Both the position numbers and the translations under genes were made by a program. The notes beneath the pieces were generated by a model that did not search any database, was not told where the DNA came from, and saw nothing but the letters and a program-made list of their open reading frames with translations. Below, piece by piece: positions 26,520 through 36,450 of a stretch of DNA of 64,000 bases (the first letter of the stretch is position 1; each line of letters opens with the position of its first letter). The stretch is from an uncultured Phycisphaerales bacterium (GTDB lineage Bacteria; Planctomycetota; Phycisphaerae; Tepidisphaerales; Tepidisphaeraceae). The DNA is taken from the NCBI GenBank assembly GCA_963844715.1, contig CAWJPJ010000008.1, positions 800,001-864,000 on the forward strand, in the 5' to 3' direction.

Positions 26520-27200
26520 TCACTTTGGCGCTTGCTCTGGAGCATCAACCAGAATTTTTGCTGCTGCGGCCATGCCCAGCGAGACTACCTCACGGCGAGG
26601 AATCCGAATCTTAACCGCCTCCGCCGCCGAGTCTCGCTTGCCGACGGTAACAATTGAGCCAGGTTTCAGACCGCTTCGCTCGATAAATCGTAAGAATTCC
26701 GGCTCTTGATCCACCACTCTAACGATTTGTTGAGCAATGCCCACGGGGCAGTCGGCGAGGCTCATCAACTGGCGTTCGTGCAGATGCCCCTTGGGAGTCG
26801 GGATCGGGTCGCCGTGCGGATCGGCCGTCGGATGCCCCAGCAAAGCATCCATCCGCTCCAGCACTGCGGTCGGATATTGCGTGTTCCAGGCTGTCGGCCT
26901 CGTCATGCACGGCCGACCAATCCAAGCCCAGCATATTGACCAGAAACAACTCCACGAGCCGATGCCGCCGCAGGACGTGCAGGGCCAATTGTTCGCCGCG
27001 GCGGGTCAGTTTCACTCCGCCTCTCGGCTCGTAATCGACCAGTCCTGAATCCGACAAGGCCTTGACCATGGAGGTGGCGGTCCCCGGCACGACCCCCATG
27101 CGGCCGCCAGACGGCCCATCGACACCAACGTTCCCCCTTCGGCGGCGCGCTGCTCCAAATAAAGTTGCTTCAAGTAGTTCTCAACCGTGCTTGTCGCCAT
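26520..27200 (-). CDS. mntR: DtxR/MntR metal-dependent repressor with FeoA domain (frameshifts)
   Basis: STVENYLKQLY, LRRHRLVELFL, HDEADSLEH, DPHGDPIP, C-terminal FeoA-like domain. Confidence 0.88.
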
Positions 27201-27247
27201 GAGCGCCGTCCTTTTGCAACGTAAAAGATTATCTGCCGATCAACCGA

Positions 27248-27295
27248 TTGACAAATGATATGGTATTCGATATTTTTATTTTGAGTAATCAAAAT
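27248..27295 (+). promoter_or_regulatory. mntH promoter and palindromic DtxR/MntR-type operator
   Basis: TTGACA-N17-TATTTT, then ATTTTGA-gtaa-TCAAAAT (27278-27295) between divergent mntR and mntH. Confidence 0.7.
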
Positions 27296-27330
27296 TCGGT
27301 GATGGAGCGACCGAATAGGATTGAAGGCAT

Positions 27331-28760
27331 ATGATGCAAAGCCGAAAGACTGGACCACTGAATTATGAGACGATTCCGCCAGCAGTTAGCCACGCTGGGC
27401 ATGTTTCGCTGGAAGGAATGCACGGCACGGTGGCGGTTCCCCACCACGAGGCCGCCTTCTGGAAGCAATGGCGCGCCTATGTCGGGCCGGCGCTGCTGAT
27501 CAGCATCGGTTACATGGACCCCGGCAACTGGGGCACCGATCTTTCCGGCGGCGCTTCGTTCAAATACGACCTGCTCTGGGTGGTCGCCGTCGCCAGCCTG
27601 ATGGCCATCTTTCTTCAAGTCATCTCCGCCCGGCTCGGGGTGGTCACCGGCAAGGATCTGGCCCAGTGCTGCCGCGACTGGTATCCCAAGTGGACGCGCT
27701 GGCCCAACTGGCTGCTCTGCGAACTGGCGATCGGGGCCTGCGATCTGGCCGAAGTGCTCGGCAGCGCCGTCGCGATCAACCTGCTCACCCACAACCACAT
27801 TCCCATTTTCTGGGCGGTCATCATCACCGCCGGCGACGTGCTGCTGCTGCTGGCCCTGCAACGATACGGCATGCGGAAAATCGAGGCGGTGGTGCTGGTG
27901 CTGATCTCGACGATCGCCCTCTGCTACTTCATCGAGATTTTCGTCATCCCGCAGACCAAGCCAAGCTTTCTGGAGATGGGGCATGCCCTCTTCACTCCGG
28001 GTTTCCGGCACGCGGGGATGCTGTACGTGGCGATCGGGATCATCGGCGCGACGGTGATGCCGCACAATCTCTATCTGCATTCGGCATTGGTGCAGAGCCG
28101 CAAGCTTCAGAAGGACGAGCGCGCGATCCGCACGGCCATCCGGTTCAACACGATCGACTCGGCCGTGGCGCTTGTCCTCGCGTTCTTCGTGAACGCGGCC
28201 ATTCTGGTGCTGGCGGCCATGGTGTTCTACGGAAAGACCAGCGTCACCGTGGCCGGCGGGCAGTCGTCCCATTCAACGACGATACCGACTGGATTCGGGT
28301 CGCGTACTTGACCCTCGCGCCGCTGCTGGGCGTTGCCGCCGCCAGCCCGCTGTTCGCGATCGCGCTGCTGGCCAGCGGCCAGGCCAGCACCATCACCGGC
28401 ACGCTGGCCGGCCAGGTGGTGATGGAAGGCTTCATGCACTGGAGGCTCTCGCCCTGGGTCCGCCGAATCATCACCCGGCTGCTGGCCATTATCCCCGCGG
28501 TCCTGATCATCGGCATCCGCGGCAATGGCAGCGTCAACGACCTGTTGAACCTGAGCCAGGTGGTGCTGGCCCTGCAATTGCCCCTGGCGATGTTCCCGCT
28601 GCTCCATTTCACCAGTTCCCGCAAGCGGATGGGCAAGTGGAAGAGCGGCTGGTTCCTGCTGATCGCCGGCTGGGGCAGCGCGATCCTGATCACCGCACTG
28701 GACATCTACGGCTTGCCGGATGCGTTCAAACAGGCTTGGCAGGTCATCGTCGGAGGATAA
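27331..28760 (+). CDS. mntH: Nramp divalent metal (Mn2+) transporter MntH (frameshift near 28262)
   Basis: GYMDPGNW, GATVMPHNLYLHS, GTLAGQVVMEGF, LSQVVLALQLP. Confidence 0.93.
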
Positions 28761-30187: not shown

Positions 30188-30358
30188 CAGAGGATTTGTC
30201 CGAGGCTTAGCGCCGTGTTTTCCGGAAAACTCTCTGCCGGCGATCGGGTGATCTTTAGCGTGACCAGGCACGGCACGCACCAACCGGGAGATTCTTCTTC
30301 CCGGCGACGTCAACTAAGAAGGTGGTCGCAAGATCTGGAATGCTATCATCACTGAGCA

Positions 30359-30636
30359 ATGTGCGCTCGCTACCGTCTGTAACTTTCGCTCGACACATCG
30401 CGGAGCTGCTCGGTCTCAGTGTGACCGATCTATTCGAGGAGTTTTCGGAGCGGCCACGGCTGAACATCACGATCTCGCAGCCAGTGCCCATTGTGACGCT
30501 CGATGACAGCAGGCGAAACTTTGCCGTGGCCGAATGGGGATTTCTTGCGCCCTGGGACAAGTCAAAACGAGTTTTCAACGCCGCGGGCGAAACCGTTGCC
30601 GTCAACCCGACGTTTCGCGAATCCTTCAAAGATTAA
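30359..30636 (+). pseudogene. SRAP (SOS response-associated peptidase, YedK/HMCES-like) N-terminal fragment
   Basis: MCARY start, PRLNITISQPVPIV, WGFLAPW, FNAAGETVAVNPTFRESF; ends after about 90 codons with no C-terminal half visible. Confidence 0.7.
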
Positions 30637-30825
30637 CTCGCTCGGCCGCCGCTTCCTGATCCGTGACAAATGAAGCTCTTGCCGGGTCACGCGCTCGTCT
30701 TTCTCGCAGCATATAGCTCCACCAAACTCCGAAGCGAATGAGTGGGACTCCTTTCCAAATTCCATTCAATGCGAATGCAGAGAAGAGGACCTCCGGGGCC
30801 GGTCCTCTCCTGATACCGTTCCCGA

Positions 30826-31165
30826 CGTTATCCATGATGCTGCGCAGCGGCCCTACGGACGCCAGGGCGCAGCAGCATTGTGGATAACTCGGCGGAAAAA
30901 GCTGGATCAATTGTGCACAAACTGTCGCGTGCGCCAGATGCCGACAGTGTGCCCATTACGGTAACGGCGGCCGAGCATATCGCGCCGCTGTCGGCTGGGT
31001 TGCGGTTACGGTCCGTCCTCTCTATGCGCGAGACGTTCTTGCGGAGATCACCGGGCCGCGACACGGCGCCTGTTCAGAAGTCTGAGAGAACATCGTCCCA
31101 GCGGAAGCTTCACTTCCGCACCGAGGACTCCGTATCAGGTCGATTGGCAACAGGCTGCTGGCCGC
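30826..31165 (+). ncRNA. Predicted IS110 bridge RNA (boundaries approximate)
   Basis: 5' hairpin gttatcca/tggataac; target-loop guide gtcctctc (31015-31022); donor-loop guides gagagaacatc (31084-31094) and gtatcag (31132-31138) inside stem gcctgtt/aacaggc. Confidence 0.78.
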
Positions 31166-31195
31166 AAGCGCTCCCGCTCGCCAGGAGATTGTCTT

Positions 31196-32469
31196 ATGGA
31201 ATCCTCTGAACTTCCTTTTTCGGAACTGCTTCACTTTGGCGGCTTCGATTACGCAGGTCAGAAGCATTATGTCGTCGTTGTTGATCGGGCAGGCTCGAAA
31301 GTGCTGAGCATGGAGTTCGATAACACCGCCGACGGTTGGCGCAGATTCCTGGACGCGATCAAGCCCTTTCCGAAGATCGCCTTCACGATCGAGACCAGTT
31401 GCGGCGCAGACGTCGAGCGCCTGCTGGACGCCGGTCTGCCGGTCTATCCGATTAATCCCAAATCCGCGCAGCGCTACCGGGACCGCAAGTCAGTGGCCGG
31501 CTGCAAGAGTGATGAGCTGGACGCTTTCTGCATGGCCGACGCGCTGCGCACGGACGGCGCGGCCTGGAGGCGGTTGTTGCCAATGGACCCGACAACACAC
31601 GAACTGCGTGTGCTGTGCCGGGATGAGATTCACCTTATCGAGCTGCGCACTTCCTTGATCAATCAGCTTCGTGCTACTCTCCATCAATATTATCCAGTGG
31701 CATTGGAGGCCTTCACGGATTGGGTGTCGCCAAGCGCATGGGATTTTGTCATCACGTTCCCGACTCCCGCGGAGTTGGTCAGCGCGGGGAAACGAAAATG
31801 GCAGAAGTTTCTATTCGCGCATCACATGACCAGCCAGGAAAAACTCGATGAGCGAACGGCACTGTTCGCCAAGGCCAATGAGTTCACCAATCCGGTTGCA
31901 GCGGTAATCTCAGGCAAAAGCCTGCTGGCGACGACGCTGGCAAAACAACTGCGCGTTGGAGGCGCAGCTTTGCGTATACCGGTCCCGCATCACGGCACTG
32001 TTCCGCCAGCATCCAGACTATGCGTGCTTTGGCTCGCTACCCGGTGCGGTGAAAGCTCGCGCCACGGTTGCTTGCGGAACTGGGTACTTGCCGTGAGGTC
32101 TTTGCATCAGCCGAGGCGTTGCAGGCGTATGCAGGTACCGCGCCGGTCACGAAGAAGTCTGGGAAGTCGGACATCGTACATTTTCGACGGGCTTGCAATT
32201 GTTACTTGCGAGCCACCGTTCACCTCTGGGTGGATCTCAGCCGCCACTATTGCGTTTGGGCCGAAGCCTATTACCAGCAGAAGCGCAAGCAAGGCATGGG
32301 GCATGCAGCTGCGCTCCGATGCCTCGGCCAGCGCTGGCTCAATATTCTATGGAGCATCTGGCAAAAAAATGTGGCGTATGACGAAGCGAGCCATACGCGC
32401 AATCAAGTAAAGCACGGCTCCTGGGTCGTTCGCTTATTACCAAAATCTGAAACGGGTGCCGCGAACTGA
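31196..32469 (+). CDS. IS110 family recombinase/transposase (frameshifts near 31955-32060)
   Basis: GFDYAGQKH (D), IETS (E), KSDELDA (DD) DEDD domain; YAGTAPVTKKSGKS Tnp serine region. Confidence 0.9.
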
Positions 32470-32937
32470 TCCATGTGAACAACATGGCGCGAAAAAACCG
32501 AATCTGCTCATTGACGGCAGAGAGAACATCTCCCGCACCTCCTCTCCTTGGCCCTAAATCCGGTGTGTGGTGCTGTCGGAAACAATAAGGATGCGCCGGG
32601 AACATTCGGGGAAGGTAGGCCCGCTGTTGTTGAAAGGCCGCACGCGGCCAGGGGGCAGCGGGCCTACGGCATGTTGGTTCGACTCCGCTATCGAAACGCC
32701 ACCAGCCGAGTACGGCCTTGCCATGCTCGCCTCCTCGGGGAAATCCGACTGTGAGGTTGAGCAGGTGAAGGGCCGGATTTCCCCTGCGGGCCTGCGCGTT
32801 TATGTTGAGTTCCGAATTATTTTTGAGTTCGGCGGAAAATCCCTGCATTTCGGGGGTTCTGAGCAGAATGGCGAAGCGGTTTGCTTCACATAATCCTGAT
32901 GTCTTTCTTATGCCCATGTGGCGGAAAGGAAGGCGTC

Positions 32938-34200
32938 ATGTCTCACGATCTGTTTCTTCGATGTGTTCGCAGGCGGATCAGCGGCAATCCACAGGAACCG
33001 CTGTTGGAGCGATTCCTGATTTATCTCACCCAGCGTGGTTACGCTCCGGGAACGTGGTATCGGCTTCTGCGCATTGCCGATCACTTCGGGCGATGGCTTG
33101 GCCCTGGACCTTTGACGTACAAGGCGGCGCAGGGCTTCCTCAAACGCCATTTGCCGAGGTGCCGATGCACAACGCATTCGCTGCGCAGCCTGCAATGCAA
33201 TCGCGAAGCGCTGCGGCTTTTGCTTGAGATGGCCGCAATCACGCCGACTCCGTCGCCAGCCCCCATGCATTTTGCGGATCGGCTGCTGGAACAATATGGA
33301 CAGCACCTGATACAGGCGAGAGGACTCGCGCCGGTGACTGTCCATCATCGGTTGGATCTGGCCAGGCGAATGCTTCGACAGTTCCGAGTGCGTCAATCAT
33401 CACAGTTCCGCGCCTGGACGGCCGCTCAGATCCAGCAATACATCGCGCGAATGGTGCGTCCTTACCAGACGTCCACCGGCCGCGCCATGACTTCAGCGAC
33501 TCGCTCGTTCCTATGCTATTTACTGCAAAATCGCTTGATTCGGCGGGATTTGGCCGCGGCGGTTCCCGCATTGGCCCATTGGCGATTAGCGCCCTTGCCC
33601 AACACTCTGACAATCAAGGAGATTGAACGGCTCCTCAGGGCTGTCCGGCAATGCACCCCGCTCAATCTTCGCGACCGCGCCATTCTCCTGTGCATGGTCG
33701 AACTGGGTCTCCGGCGCCCCGACGTGACGGGACTGGAAGTCATCGGGGTGGATCTGGCCCATCGAGTGTTGCGCCTTCAACATCACAAGGAACGGGAGGC
33801 GGCGGCAACGCCCATGACCAGCCGACTGGCAGAGGCGATTGAAGCGTATCTCCGCAAAGGCCGTCCTGCCTGCCAGTCACCGTTCCTGTTCGTCTCGCAT
33901 CGCGCCCCGGTTGGCAAGCCCTTGTCCACTGCCGGCCTTGGACACATCGTGCTCAGGATTGCTGGTCGCGCGAGATTGCAGGGCCGCGTCAGGGGCACCC
34001 ATATATTTAGGCATAGTCTCGCCAGCCGACTGCTCGCTTCGGGAGCGCACCTTAAACAAATCGCCGACGTGCTGGGTCATCAGTCGATTGAGACAACGAT
34101 GATTTATACCAAAGTCGATCTGCGCGCGCTGATGCAGGTGGCGTTGCCTTGGCCCGGGGGCGCCAAAGACAAAACCTCCGCCGGGGAGGTGCGGCCATGA
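32938..34200 (+). CDS. ritA: RIT tyrosine recombinase A
   Basis: LGLRRPDV, THIFRHSLASRL, LGHQSIETTMIY; ATGA overlap with next gene. Confidence 0.88.
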   Translation: MSHDLFLRCVRRRISGNPQEPLLERFLIYLTQRGYAPGTWYRLLRIADHFGRWLGPGPLTYKAAQGFLKRHLPRCRCTTHSLRSLQCNREALRLLLEMAAITPTPSPAPMHFADRLLEQYGQHLIQARGLAPVTVHHRLDLARRMLRQFRVRQSSQFRAWTAAQIQQYIARMVRPYQTSTGRAMTSATRSFLCYLLQNRLIRRDLAAAVPALAHWRLAPLPNTLTIKEIERLLRAVRQCTPLNLRDRAILLCMVELGLRRPDVTGLEVIGVDLAHRVLRLQHHKEREAAATPMTSRLAEAIEAYLRKGRPACQSPFLFVSHRAPVGKPLSTAGLGHIVLRIAGRARLQGRVRGTHIFRHSLASRLLASGAHLKQIADVLGHQSIETTMIYTKVDLRALMQVALPWPGGAKDKTSAGEVRP

Positions 34201-35153
34201 CACACCAACTGACGATGGTTCGCCACGCCAGAGCCTACCTTGAATACCGCCGCTCCCTGGGCTTTGCACTGCGCGGTCATGGCAGATTGGCGATGCAATT
34301 CGCTCGTTTCCTCGATCGCCGCCGTCACGAGCTTCCAACGATCGGCCTGATGCTGCGCTGGGTCAATGGAAAGGGAACGCATTCCCAAAGCTATCGCGCC
34401 AGTCGTTTAACGGCGGTTCGCAGTTTTGCACGCTATCTGGCGGCAAGGGATGAACGAATCCCCATCCCGCCCGCCCGACTCTTATCCGTGAGGATTCGGC
34501 GCTGTCGGCCTCACATTTACAGCCCGCTGCAACTTGAGCAGCTGCTGTCCGCTGCCGGGCGGCTGCATCCTCACTTTGCGCTTCGCCCTTTGACCTATCA
34601 GACGCTTCTGGGACTGATCGCCGCCACAGGCTTGCGCATCTCTGAAGCCATCAGGCTCCAGCGCGGACAGATCGATTTGAAGCGTGGTCTGCTGGAGATT
34701 ACGCAGACCAAATTCAAAAAGTCACGCCTTGTGCCGATGCACCCGACCACAACGCGGGCCTTGCGCCATTACCGCGATAAGCGCGATCAGCAATGGGGAA
34801 CACGACAGGAAGCACCATTCTTTCTCAACGCCGCAGGCCGATATTTGCCATCGGAAACGGTACAGGCTGTATTCCGTCGGCTTTGCGAAGGTCTCGGCTG
34901 GCATCGGGGCAACGGCGAATTACCCAAACCACGCCTCCATGACCTGCGCCACAGCTTCGCCTGCCGCCGCCTATTGATCTGGCATCGCAATGGCGACGAC
35001 ATCGGGAACCGCATCGCCGCGCTGGCGACGTACCTGGGCCATGGCAGGGTCCGGGACACCTATTGGTATCTCACCGGCACCTCGGAACTGCTTGCCATTG
35101 CGGGAGACCGCTTCGGACGATTCGCCGATTCGGCAGAAGGGAGCAACCCATGA
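34197..35153 (+). CDS. ritB: RIT tyrosine recombinase B
   Basis: TGLRISEA, TKFKKSRLVP, RLHDLRHSFA, YLGH...TYWYL. Confidence 0.9.
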   Translation: MTHQLTMVRHARAYLEYRRSLGFALRGHGRLAMQFARFLDRRRHELPTIGLMLRWVNGKGTHSQSYRASRLTAVRSFARYLAARDERIPIPPARLLSVRIRRCRPHIYSPLQLEQLLSAAGRLHPHFALRPLTYQTLLGLIAATGLRISEAIRLQRGQIDLKRGLLEITQTKFKKSRLVPMHPTTTRALRHYRDKRDQQWGTRQEAPFFLNAAGRYLPSETVQAVFRRLCEGLGWHRGNGELPKPRLHDLRHSFACRRLLIWHRNGDDIGNRIAALATYLGHGRVRDTYWYLTGTSELLAIAGDRFGRFADSAEGSNP

Positions 35154-36163
35154 AAGCCAAGGAACTTATCCCCACGCTTCCACTGGCGCCGTTACTCCAG
35201 AACTATTTTTGTTCTCATTTGATCGGCCAGCGCGACCTGAGCCGGCGGACGATCCATGCCTATCGCGACACATTCCGGCTGCTGCTGAAGTTCCTGGCTC
35301 ACCGCTTCAAGTTGATGCCCGAAGCATTGCGCGTGAGTGATCTGGACCCGCCAAGAGTCCTTGCCTTCCTTGATGACCTGGAACAATCCCGTGGCAACGG
35401 CGTTCGCACCCGCAACGCCCGGTTGGTGGCGATCCATTCCTTCATGCGCTACATCGCATCCGTCGAGCCGTCGTTGTTGAATGTGGCCCAGCGCATTCTT
35501 GCGATTCCCGCCAAGCGATTCGATCGCCCATCCATCGGCCATCTTACGCGCCAGCAGATGCAAGCCATTCTGGACGCGCCTAATGCCGCGACGCGCGGCG
35601 GACAGCGCGACCGTCTTCTGTTGATGATGCTGTACAACACCGGCGCGCGAGTGTCGGAGGTGGCGGCTCTTCACGTACACGATGTGCGCCTGGATTCCCA
35701 AGCCACGGTGCAGTTGCACGGGAAAGGACGGAAGAATCGCGCCGTACCGCTGTGGCGTTCGACAACGCGATTGCTGCGGCAGTGGCTCAAGGACACTGGC
35801 GCCGCGCCTGAATCCCCGCTGTTTCCCAATGCACGAGGCGAGCCGATGAGCCGGCATGGCATCGCCCAGCGCTTGGCAACGGCCGTGGCTCGCGCCTCGA
35901 AGAAGTTGCCGGGTTTGGGGAACATCCGCGTGACTCCACACAAAATCCGGCACTCCACGGCCATGCACCTGCTGCAATCGGGCGTGGATCTTTCAGTCAT
36001 TGCGATGTGGCTGGGCCACGAACACATCGAAACAACACATCAATACCTGGACGCCGATCTGGAATCGAAGAAACAGGCGTTGGCATGCTTGGATTCACCC
36101 CGTCTGCACCGGTATCGCCGCTCTGCGCCCAAACCGCTCCTTCAGTTCCTGGAAGGCCTGTGA
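35150..36163 (+). CDS. ritC: RIT tyrosine recombinase C
   Basis: TRNARLVAI, YNTGARVSE, GKGRKNR, TPHKIRHSTAMHLL, WLGH..TTHQY. Confidence 0.9.
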   Translation: MKAKELIPTLPLAPLLQNYFCSHLIGQRDLSRRTIHAYRDTFRLLLKFLAHRFKLMPEALRVSDLDPPRVLAFLDDLEQSRGNGVRTRNARLVAIHSFMRYIASVEPSLLNVAQRILAIPAKRFDRPSIGHLTRQQMQAILDAPNAATRGGQRDRLLLMMLYNTGARVSEVAALHVHDVRLDSQATVQLHGKGRKNRAVPLWRSTTRLLRQWLKDTGAAPESPLFPNARGEPMSRHGIAQRLATAVARASKKLPGLGNIRVTPHKIRHSTAMHLLQSGVDLSVIAMWLGHEHIETTHQYLDADLESKKQALACLDSPRLHRYRRSAPKPLLQFLEGL

Positions 36164-36450
36164 TTATGTTGAGCCATCATGCACGAGAACCCCCGAAATG
36201 CAGGGATTTTCCGCCGAACTCAAAAATAATTCGGAACTCAACATAAACGCGCAGAGGTTGAGAGTTGCATATGTGCGTGGCATGGCGTTCGTCCGCTGCG
36301 CTCGACGTTCCCGTCGCCAGCAGGAAGGATTTCTCTTTTTTAGACCTCCCGGCCGCTTCTTTCGAAGCCGGGAGGTCAAAAAATTGCTTGGGCCTTTGTG
36401 GGCCTAAGCCATCCCGGTTTGGAGTTTTCTTCCTTTTCGGGAGGTGCTTT

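Follow-up and report, generated by a model that had tools for sequence, protein, structure and literature searches.

A recombinase reading frame that overlaps the bridge RNA and may be completed only across the joined ends of an IS110 clade

A large clade of IS110-group elements carries an apparent recombinase reading frame that overlaps the bridge RNA and is assembled across the junction of the two element ends. The sequence support for this frame is strong, and its translation is what we infer from it. On balance we favour the view that the clade splits its recombinase gene over both ends, that the circle alone makes a long recombinase, and that the arrangement is a translational switch and possibly a directionality switch too. 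The element under study lies at 30810-32531 of the window, that is, of the whole stretch of 64,000 nucleotides analysed, from an uncultured Phycisphaerales bacterium; the annotated parts of the element and its target sites are on its forward (+) strand. It is an IS110-group element with CT cores and an IS621-type bridge RNA. Taken alone, the window locus adds a further bridge recombinase whose guides can be read, a useful addition but no surprise. If the wider reading is true, IS110 ends, treated so far as non-coding, contain coding sequence for a recombinase extension that depends on the circle and overlaps the guide RNA, and the same DNA serves as guide RNA and as coding sequence, with a translational layer on top of the junction promoter.

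Results

A reading frame through the left end and across the junction

A metagenome scan confirmed 580 relatives, and the best 80 of these 580 (53-94% identity) were kept as homologues. In 63 of the 66 homologues with standard ends the entire left end, including both guide loops, is free of stops and in frame with the recombinase, against about 2.5 expected from shuffles; of the two remaining forward frames, one is open in 8 homologues and one in 0. Adding six variant-end loci gives 67 of 72, since 8 of the 80 homologues had no usable left end, and these frame counts overstate independence because the homologues are related. Left-end lengths step by three, and 44 of the 48 distinct lengths keep the frame.

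At the right end, an ATG from which the junction frame stays open up to the core is present in 64 of 70 homologues, compared with 4 and 2 in the other frames. This ATG stands at codon -16 from the core in 46 loci, at -14 in 11 and otherwise at -11, -9 or -20, and a few loci have TTG at codon -15 in its place. A Shine-Dalgarno motif, loosely defined, is found at the right-end start in 47 loci. When the two ends were joined in silico, the right-end start, junction, leader and recombinase formed one frame in 56 of 59 two-end loci; the three exceptions are two breaks deep within the recombinase and one locus without a start. As a control, the distance from the recombinase stop to the core is free of frame (32/19/19). 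The fusion of leader and recombinase is also present in two further proteins.

The predicted extension has 110-185 residues, with many Arg, Ser, Ala and Pro among them and almost no aromatics. Trp accounts for 0.09% (6 codons) and Tyr for 0.06% (4 codons) of the junction frame versus 1.67% and 1.53% in shuffled sequences, a depletion seen in this frame only. The ratio of synonymous to non-synonymous change is approximately 0.5-0.8 in the extension versus 3.6 in the recombinase, so that the peptide is weakly constrained. Eight extension sequences yielded no Pfam match (one was sub-threshold) and no Atlas match. Folding predicts less pairing at the right-end start than at the internal start in 42 of 47 loci. 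A translated frame would also mean that natural guides in the clade must avoid in-frame stops; these occur in 0 of 60 left guides, a sample too small for significance.

Among 23 more distant loci, upstream frames of 91-154 extra codons are found in L004, L092, L095, L005, L006 and L098, and one of 63 codons in L007. A long upstream frame is missing from L008, L094, L096 and L097 and from all 12 plasmid loci, and the long open frame is therefore limited to the clade. The plasmid loci include ISEsa2, ISEc20 and IS116, the nearest named IS110-family transposases in that set (32%, 29% and 25% identical), which have 8-41 extra codons upstream of the transposase. L005 and L006 (27-29% identity to the query) represent a separate IS110 lineage within the same host family and have 108-154 open codons upstream of the recombinase. 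No junction-spanning recombinase frame is reported in the literature searched, a body with few subscription papers and little of the older IS110 work and ISfinder notes.

Loss of the frame in the sub-lineage of the window

The window copy retains the right-end ATG (32484-32486) at codon -16, from which a 16-codon frame enters the junction (32484-32531), and this junction frame ends at a stop after 66 codons. In its leader, a remnant of the frame with a GTG start (30880-31209, 109 codons) is out of frame with the recombinase, the same frame being fused in 67 of 72 homologues. In effect, the ends of the window's own copy are non-coding. The leader of L011 is out of frame as well, the frame is also lost in L069, L087, L071 and L076, and in L012 a stop interrupts the right-end frame while the leader is open in another frame. 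Among sequencing runs the leader shows single-base differences, with single-base indels in the frame-less lineage of the window.

In a quick tree the sub-lineage of the window is nested, on a long branch, within the clade that keeps the frame, which suggests a secondary loss. As part of the split-gene reading we are inclined, with some reserve, to regard the window's lineage as a natural loss mutant of the circle-joined frame. Contigs from the runs still show this lineage at several insertion sites. With the frame broken in six loci (the window, L011, L069, L087, L071 and L076) and these several sites seen for the lineage of the window, the circle-joined frame is dispensable.

Element boundaries and empty site

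A first-pass annotation of the window had claimed CT cores at 30810 and 32530, and they are present at 30810-30811 and 32530-32531. The left core as element boundary (30810-30811) is backed by an empty site on contig C7, by a contig with other flanks (X2) and by a joint that bypasses the element (X15). The empty site had been predicted from the sequence, and it was found on C7, a contig of the same genome, where a paralogous copy of the flanks has no element between them. X2 is a 1,730-nt contig covering 30810-32533 with different flanks, X15 joins 30811 to 32533, and X1 and X11 contain the empty-site ends; all come from contigs of 4 runs, one RNA library among them, 24 runs being listed. The left target (30802-30809) is 8 nt of host DNA, equals the left target guide and is seen in the empty site on C7. 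The right target (32532-32537), also host DNA, has one C more than the other copies (C7, L012, X1 and X11).

The short core and scarless empty site are those of the IS110 family, and CT is found at both ends in 60 homologous loci. The left end of the window element measures 386 nt and the right end 62 nt, the ranges in homologues being 302-509 nt and 34-114 nt. The long, RNA-bearing right end of the IS1111 group is not found here: the right end is the 62-nt one, and the guides lie in the left end. Searches of the source genome with blastn and tblastn gave no further copies, making the element single-copy, and seven additional, weaker PF01548 matches lie elsewhere in that genome. No relatives of the element were found in viral contigs. 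The sequencing runs with the element are from moss, bog and peat; none of the listed runs looks like the source (best share 0.64).

The recombinase gene and its frameshifts

The IS110 recombinase gene (31196-32469; DEDD RuvC-like and Tnp domains) is frameshifted in the assembly. PF01548 matches an open reading frame from 31196 and PF02371 a second frame ending at 32469, two domains that share a single frame in the proteins P0002 and P0003. Indels near 31950, 32047 and 32051 split the gene. Intact 425-aa homologues are 99% and 98% identical to the window recombinase, and X1, X2 and most of X11 are without the three frameshifts and intact there. The catalytic residues D18, E66, D106, D109 and S323 are invariant across 30 aligned proteins and align with IS621. 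An internal Shine-Dalgarno sequence, AGGAG (31183-31187), precedes the short recombinase start, and GGAG-type motifs stand at the same place in homologue leaders.

Is the window copy a dead pseudogene, or is it a live element whose sequence contains assembly errors? It differs from other contigs by about 6 indels in 1.7 kb, while the two RIT copies of the genome (described below) differ by 2 in 3,462 bp, and being single-copy also fits a dead element. Set against this, the indels fall in homopolymer or dinucleotide runs, host DNA at the flanks has a similar missing G, and intact near-identical proteins exist. We regard the pseudogene as possible but doubtful. The frameshifts sit in short repeats and neighbouring genes are split too, which makes assembly error the likely cause of all three. 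These neighbours, at 26719-28760 and 30322-30636, look split or truncated; judging by their translations they include a metal-dependent repressor and an Nramp-type transporter, and there is a partial SRAP gene as well. Their state is consistent with an indel-prone assembly.

Guides and structure of the bridge RNA

The guides are located where the first-pass annotation put them, and the sequence supports its reading of a putative bispecific bridge RNA with an IS110-group recombinase. In the target-binding loop (30999-31062) the left guide GTCCTCTC (31015-31022) matches the left target flank, an inner stem follows at 31025-31037, and the right guide TGCGGAG occupies 31040-31046; position 31023 faces the core C, and a handshake AT is found at 31047-31048. 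The right guide had been read as matching its flank with a one-base gap. Its position stands, and the gap is due to the extra C at 32532: since C7, L012, X1 and X11 are without this C, the guide matches without a gap. The alternative of a missing C in the left target guide was rejected, as the X1 and X11 contigs are gapless there. The arms cggtcc/gggccg, proposed to close this loop, are present, but the conserved closing stem is CGGT/ACCG, paired in 45 of 45 sequences.

The donor-binding loop (31068-31155) contains the left guide (31085-31094), a variable inner hairpin, the right guide GTATCAG (31132-31138) and a handshake GT (31139-31140), and it is closed by gcctgtt/aacaggc as had been annotated. 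The match to the left donor arm, GAGAGAACATC, lies at 31084-31094 as proposed. A donor guide of 11 nt was rejected because the eleventh base fails to covary (position -10 matches in 21 of 62, null 22.3) and is put down to chance, which leaves support for a left donor guide of 10 nt with the core C counted in. The inner hairpin gcggaag/cttccgc is present in the window, and as a general feature it fails, being a variable insertion missing from many homologues. The DNA counterparts of the donor guides are the 9-nt left donor arm with the right CT core (32521-32531), assigned from motif match and donor covariation, and the right donor arm GATAC, which runs into a -10-like TACCGT at 30814-30819 (together 30812-30819). 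From these pairings the bridge element would have a target of 15 bp (8+2+5) and a donor of 16 bp (9+2+5). When the leader was shuffled 20,000 times with dinucleotides preserved, no shuffle contained all four guide matches; singly the frequencies were 0.00005, 0.013, 0.006 and 0.049.

Covariation of guides with flanks, which the annotation had named as a check, was positive. The target guides covary with their flanks over 8 left and 5 right positions among the 80 homologous loci. For the left guide, positions -8 to -1 match in 32, 31, 23, 32, 31, 34, 48 and 52 of 54 loci (permuted 15-38), and for the right guide, positions +1 to +5 match in 55, 49, 51, 46 and 46 of 56 (permuted 14-22), counted with one locus per guide pair and with a permutation that ignores kinship beyond the removal of identical guide pairs. 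Left position -9 and right position +6 do not covary with the flank. Donor guides are near-invariant among homologues, in part because the motif search required those motifs; six loci change guide and left end jointly at +5, and L060 does so at -3. The target-loop handshake tracks the donor (58 AT/AT and 4 TT/TT of 62), and no tracking of the target by the donor-loop handshake was seen among homologues.

Compensatory changes also mark the RNA stems. In 45 sequences, 18 of 28 pairs show double changes and 95.9% of cells are paired versus 28-48% in slid controls, with the structure derived from the same 45-sequence alignment and guide-guide pairs removed. A single-sequence fold of the RNA core was no better than shuffles (z -0.54), and the alignment evidence was therefore used for the structure. 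In an Rfam scan of the window the sole match was a tRNA elsewhere. The left end also folds into a long 5' hairpin (30822-30893).

Candidate junction promoter and search for the circle

As the first-pass annotation stated, the joined ends read TTGACG, 17 nt, TACCGT. The -35-like hexamer TTGACG is at 32511-32516, a TTTACA or TTG-type hexamer stands at equal distance in 53 of 56 homologues, and TACCGT, TACCAT or TACCCT occupies the -10 position in 47 of 56. This candidate promoter keeps its 17-nt spacing throughout the homologues. A promoter scan of the linear element gave no site, as expected for a promoter split between the ends. No circle-junction joint was found in the source genome or in the contigs of 4 of the 24 listed runs, where contigs only do not show absence. 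The junction motif matched viral contigs 21 times, in no case close to an IS110, and these matches are put down to chance.

L085 offers a natural join of a right-end-like sequence to a left end within a linear contig, with a 527-aa open reading frame running across. Its left flank (675-721) is right-end-like, having a 28-nt repeat 89% identical to its own right end, and differs from the target that the guides predict; it may have arisen by insertion into a site resembling the donor, or be what is left of a tandem.

The 5' hairpin holds a DnaA-box-like 9-mer (30879-30887). Similar 9-mers lie at 30828, about 30910 and 32476, and in window and homologues they cluster around the junction at approximately -56, +18, +67 and +100. 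An exact 9-mer is present in 39 of 56 junction regions versus 0.42 in shuffles, and the motif also occurs in L094 and L096, relatives without the open frame. A link of this cluster to replication is possible, and the literature titles searched held nothing specific on it.

Discussion

We consider it probable that these elements move as IS621 does, by bridge RNA, and that the split recombinase gene in the wider clade acts as a translational switch. Excision would take place at the CT cores, as in IS621, and the joined ends would form a sigma-70-type promoter transcribing the left end. Loop 1 of the bridge RNA would pair with the target over 8 nt on the left, the core and 5 nt on the right, and loop 2 with the element's own junction over 9 nt, the core and 5 nt; the DEDD-serine recombinase would then exchange strands, aided by the handshake pairs. 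For the window element, circle, RNA and activity are presumed by homology with IS621. In the wider clade, the right-end ribosome-binding site and ATG and the left-end frame would reach the recombinase only once the ends meet. Transcripts from the junction promoter would begin too far downstream to include the right-end ATG, so that translation of the long frame needs RNA that crosses the junction, and the frame would be read from transcripts circling round or crossing tandem ends. Circles would give high recombinase output from the accessible start, and integrated copies would be left with the internal start alone, which is more structured. The added residues would form a tail, probably disordered judging by its composition, whose sequence matters little, and the sub-lineage of the window, having lost the frame, would depend on the internal start. 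A second, translational switch is the most likely purpose of the frame, and we favour it since the right-end start is predicted to be less paired and a structured leader blocks translation in ISPpu9 (PMC12288879). If true, this gives a concrete and cheap test of how elements curb their activity when integrated and raise it as circles, and screens of orthologs that use only the short open reading frame of a gene-caller may miss the natural circle form.

The main rival to the translational switch holds that the long circle-specific recombinase is a distinct enzyme form. Its tail, basic and disordered, would promote integration, or else cis binding to the RNA or circle it comes from, the short form favouring excision. 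The frame does run without stops into the recombinase with no separate leader peptide, the tail has its peculiar composition (Arg, Ser, Ala and Pro, with aromatics nearly absent), and the internal start is also kept, so two isoforms are possible. A tail that ranges from 113 to 185 residues and is weakly conserved in sequence speaks against a distinct enzyme, as do some loci in which a frameshift within the donor loop is undone further downstream, and the geometry of the complex is said to explain IS621 directionality (PMC13626964). We judge a distinct isoform unlikely. It is quite improbable, in our estimate, that the frame is untranslated, a by-product of high G+C, RNA structure, promoter or binding motifs and ancestry in what would be a plain IS110 group. 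Weak conservation of the amino acids would fit such a by-product, as would losses of the frame in several lineages and the double role of motifs around the ATG as DnaA-box-like and A-rich promoter elements. Yet indels in four independently varying segments are nearly all multiples of three, while the stretch from recombinase stop to core varies freely and single-base indels appear in the window lineage, where the frame is lost. The start moves by whole codons among subgroups, often with a Shine-Dalgarno motif, and Trp and Tyr are purged in the junction frame only.

The frames might instead serve the integrated state, as in IS900 hed, with host translation entering the left end and the right-end ATG restarting the host gene. 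PMC8141618 (citing Doran 1997) describes hed as an IS110-family frame that has no start of its own, relies on host signals and gains a start via recombination. In-frame ATG or GTG codons do occur near a few left flanks. The hed frame is antisense and takes a host start on insertion, whereas the frame of the clade is sense, fused to the recombinase, and has its start in the other element end. Against a role in the integrated state, the flanks have no frame bias on either side: by frame, left flanks are open over 150 nt in 11/10/13 of 40, right flanks in 18/20/14 of 44, and start codons near the element number 15/18/10 of 58. The window's target is moreover non-coding. Fusion to host genes as the reason for the frame was rejected on this absent bias, and we give it hardly any credence.

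The translational switch would be added to a system otherwise close to known ones. IS621 and IS622/ISCro4 (PMC11208160, PMC11208158, 10.1101/2025.05.14.653916) share with the window element the CT core, junction promoter motifs, left-end bridge RNA with 5' hairpin and two guide loops, DEDD and serine residues, and AU and GU handshakes. PMC11208158 gives the guide positions and handshakes of IS621, and PMC11208160 has 8-14 nt of bridge RNA pairing and words the ends as non-coding. The IS621 protein is distant (E 5e-11 to 8WT6; 328 aa versus 425 aa here), and its pairing is 7+2+5 where we find 8+2+5 for the target and 9+2+5 for the donor. While the IS621 papers define the ends as non-coding, those of the present clade are coding-like on sequence criteria. 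The first-pass annotation had suggested a longer leader and possibly a longer donor guide than in IS621. The left end of 302-509 nt does exceed the 177 nt of the RNA in IS621, and guides on the left have 1-2 nt more, lengths that lie within the published range: 10.64898/2026.10.21.760802 reports up to 40 programmable nt and more than 28 paired bases in 19% of 32,190 bridge RNAs, and 10.64898/2026.08.14.744561 has longer guides as well. Longer guides alone are therefore not very novel. Long-guide bridge RNAs (such as cluster 14 of 10.64898/2026.10.21.760802) have an IS621-like structure with more paired bases, 34 in the published example versus about 32-33 here, and the accessible part of that report mentions no reading frame for them. 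Related work compared comprised PMC11187229, 10.1101/2025.10.25.684509 and PMC13604230.

In ISPpu10 (10.64898/2026.03.19.712850) the left target is the 3' arm of a host stem-loop, and so it is in the window, where a hairpin in host DNA (30784-30808; DNA fold -7.0 kcal/mol) has the left target as its 3' arm, and in L011, which has a compensated 11-bp version. Unlike in ISPpu10, the hairpin is not family-wide (13 of 42, with the fold energy of control flanks), and a hairpin target was rejected as a family rule.

Upstream of a DUF932 gene, a conserved non-coding stretch rich in hairpins (30780-30811, 32532-32800 and from 36279 onward) begins with the IS110 target of the window. The genome has further copies of this stretch, and its coverage in the runs is deep. 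About 270 bp downstream of the IS, an element at approximately 32800-36270 has three PF00589 matches; this three-tyrosine-recombinase element is of the RIT type. A 99.9% identical RIT copy occupies the same site in opposite orientation on C7 (G000:C7, 891458-894917), and in L012 the RIT site (about 1984) is empty. The target-bearing stretch resembles a mobile element's leading region into which both the IS110 and the RIT element insert preferentially. Elsewhere, the target CCGCA-CT-CCGGG is common to L025, L026, L034-L036, L043, L044, L050, L053 and L058, and may correspond to a motif conserved in the coding sequence of host genes.
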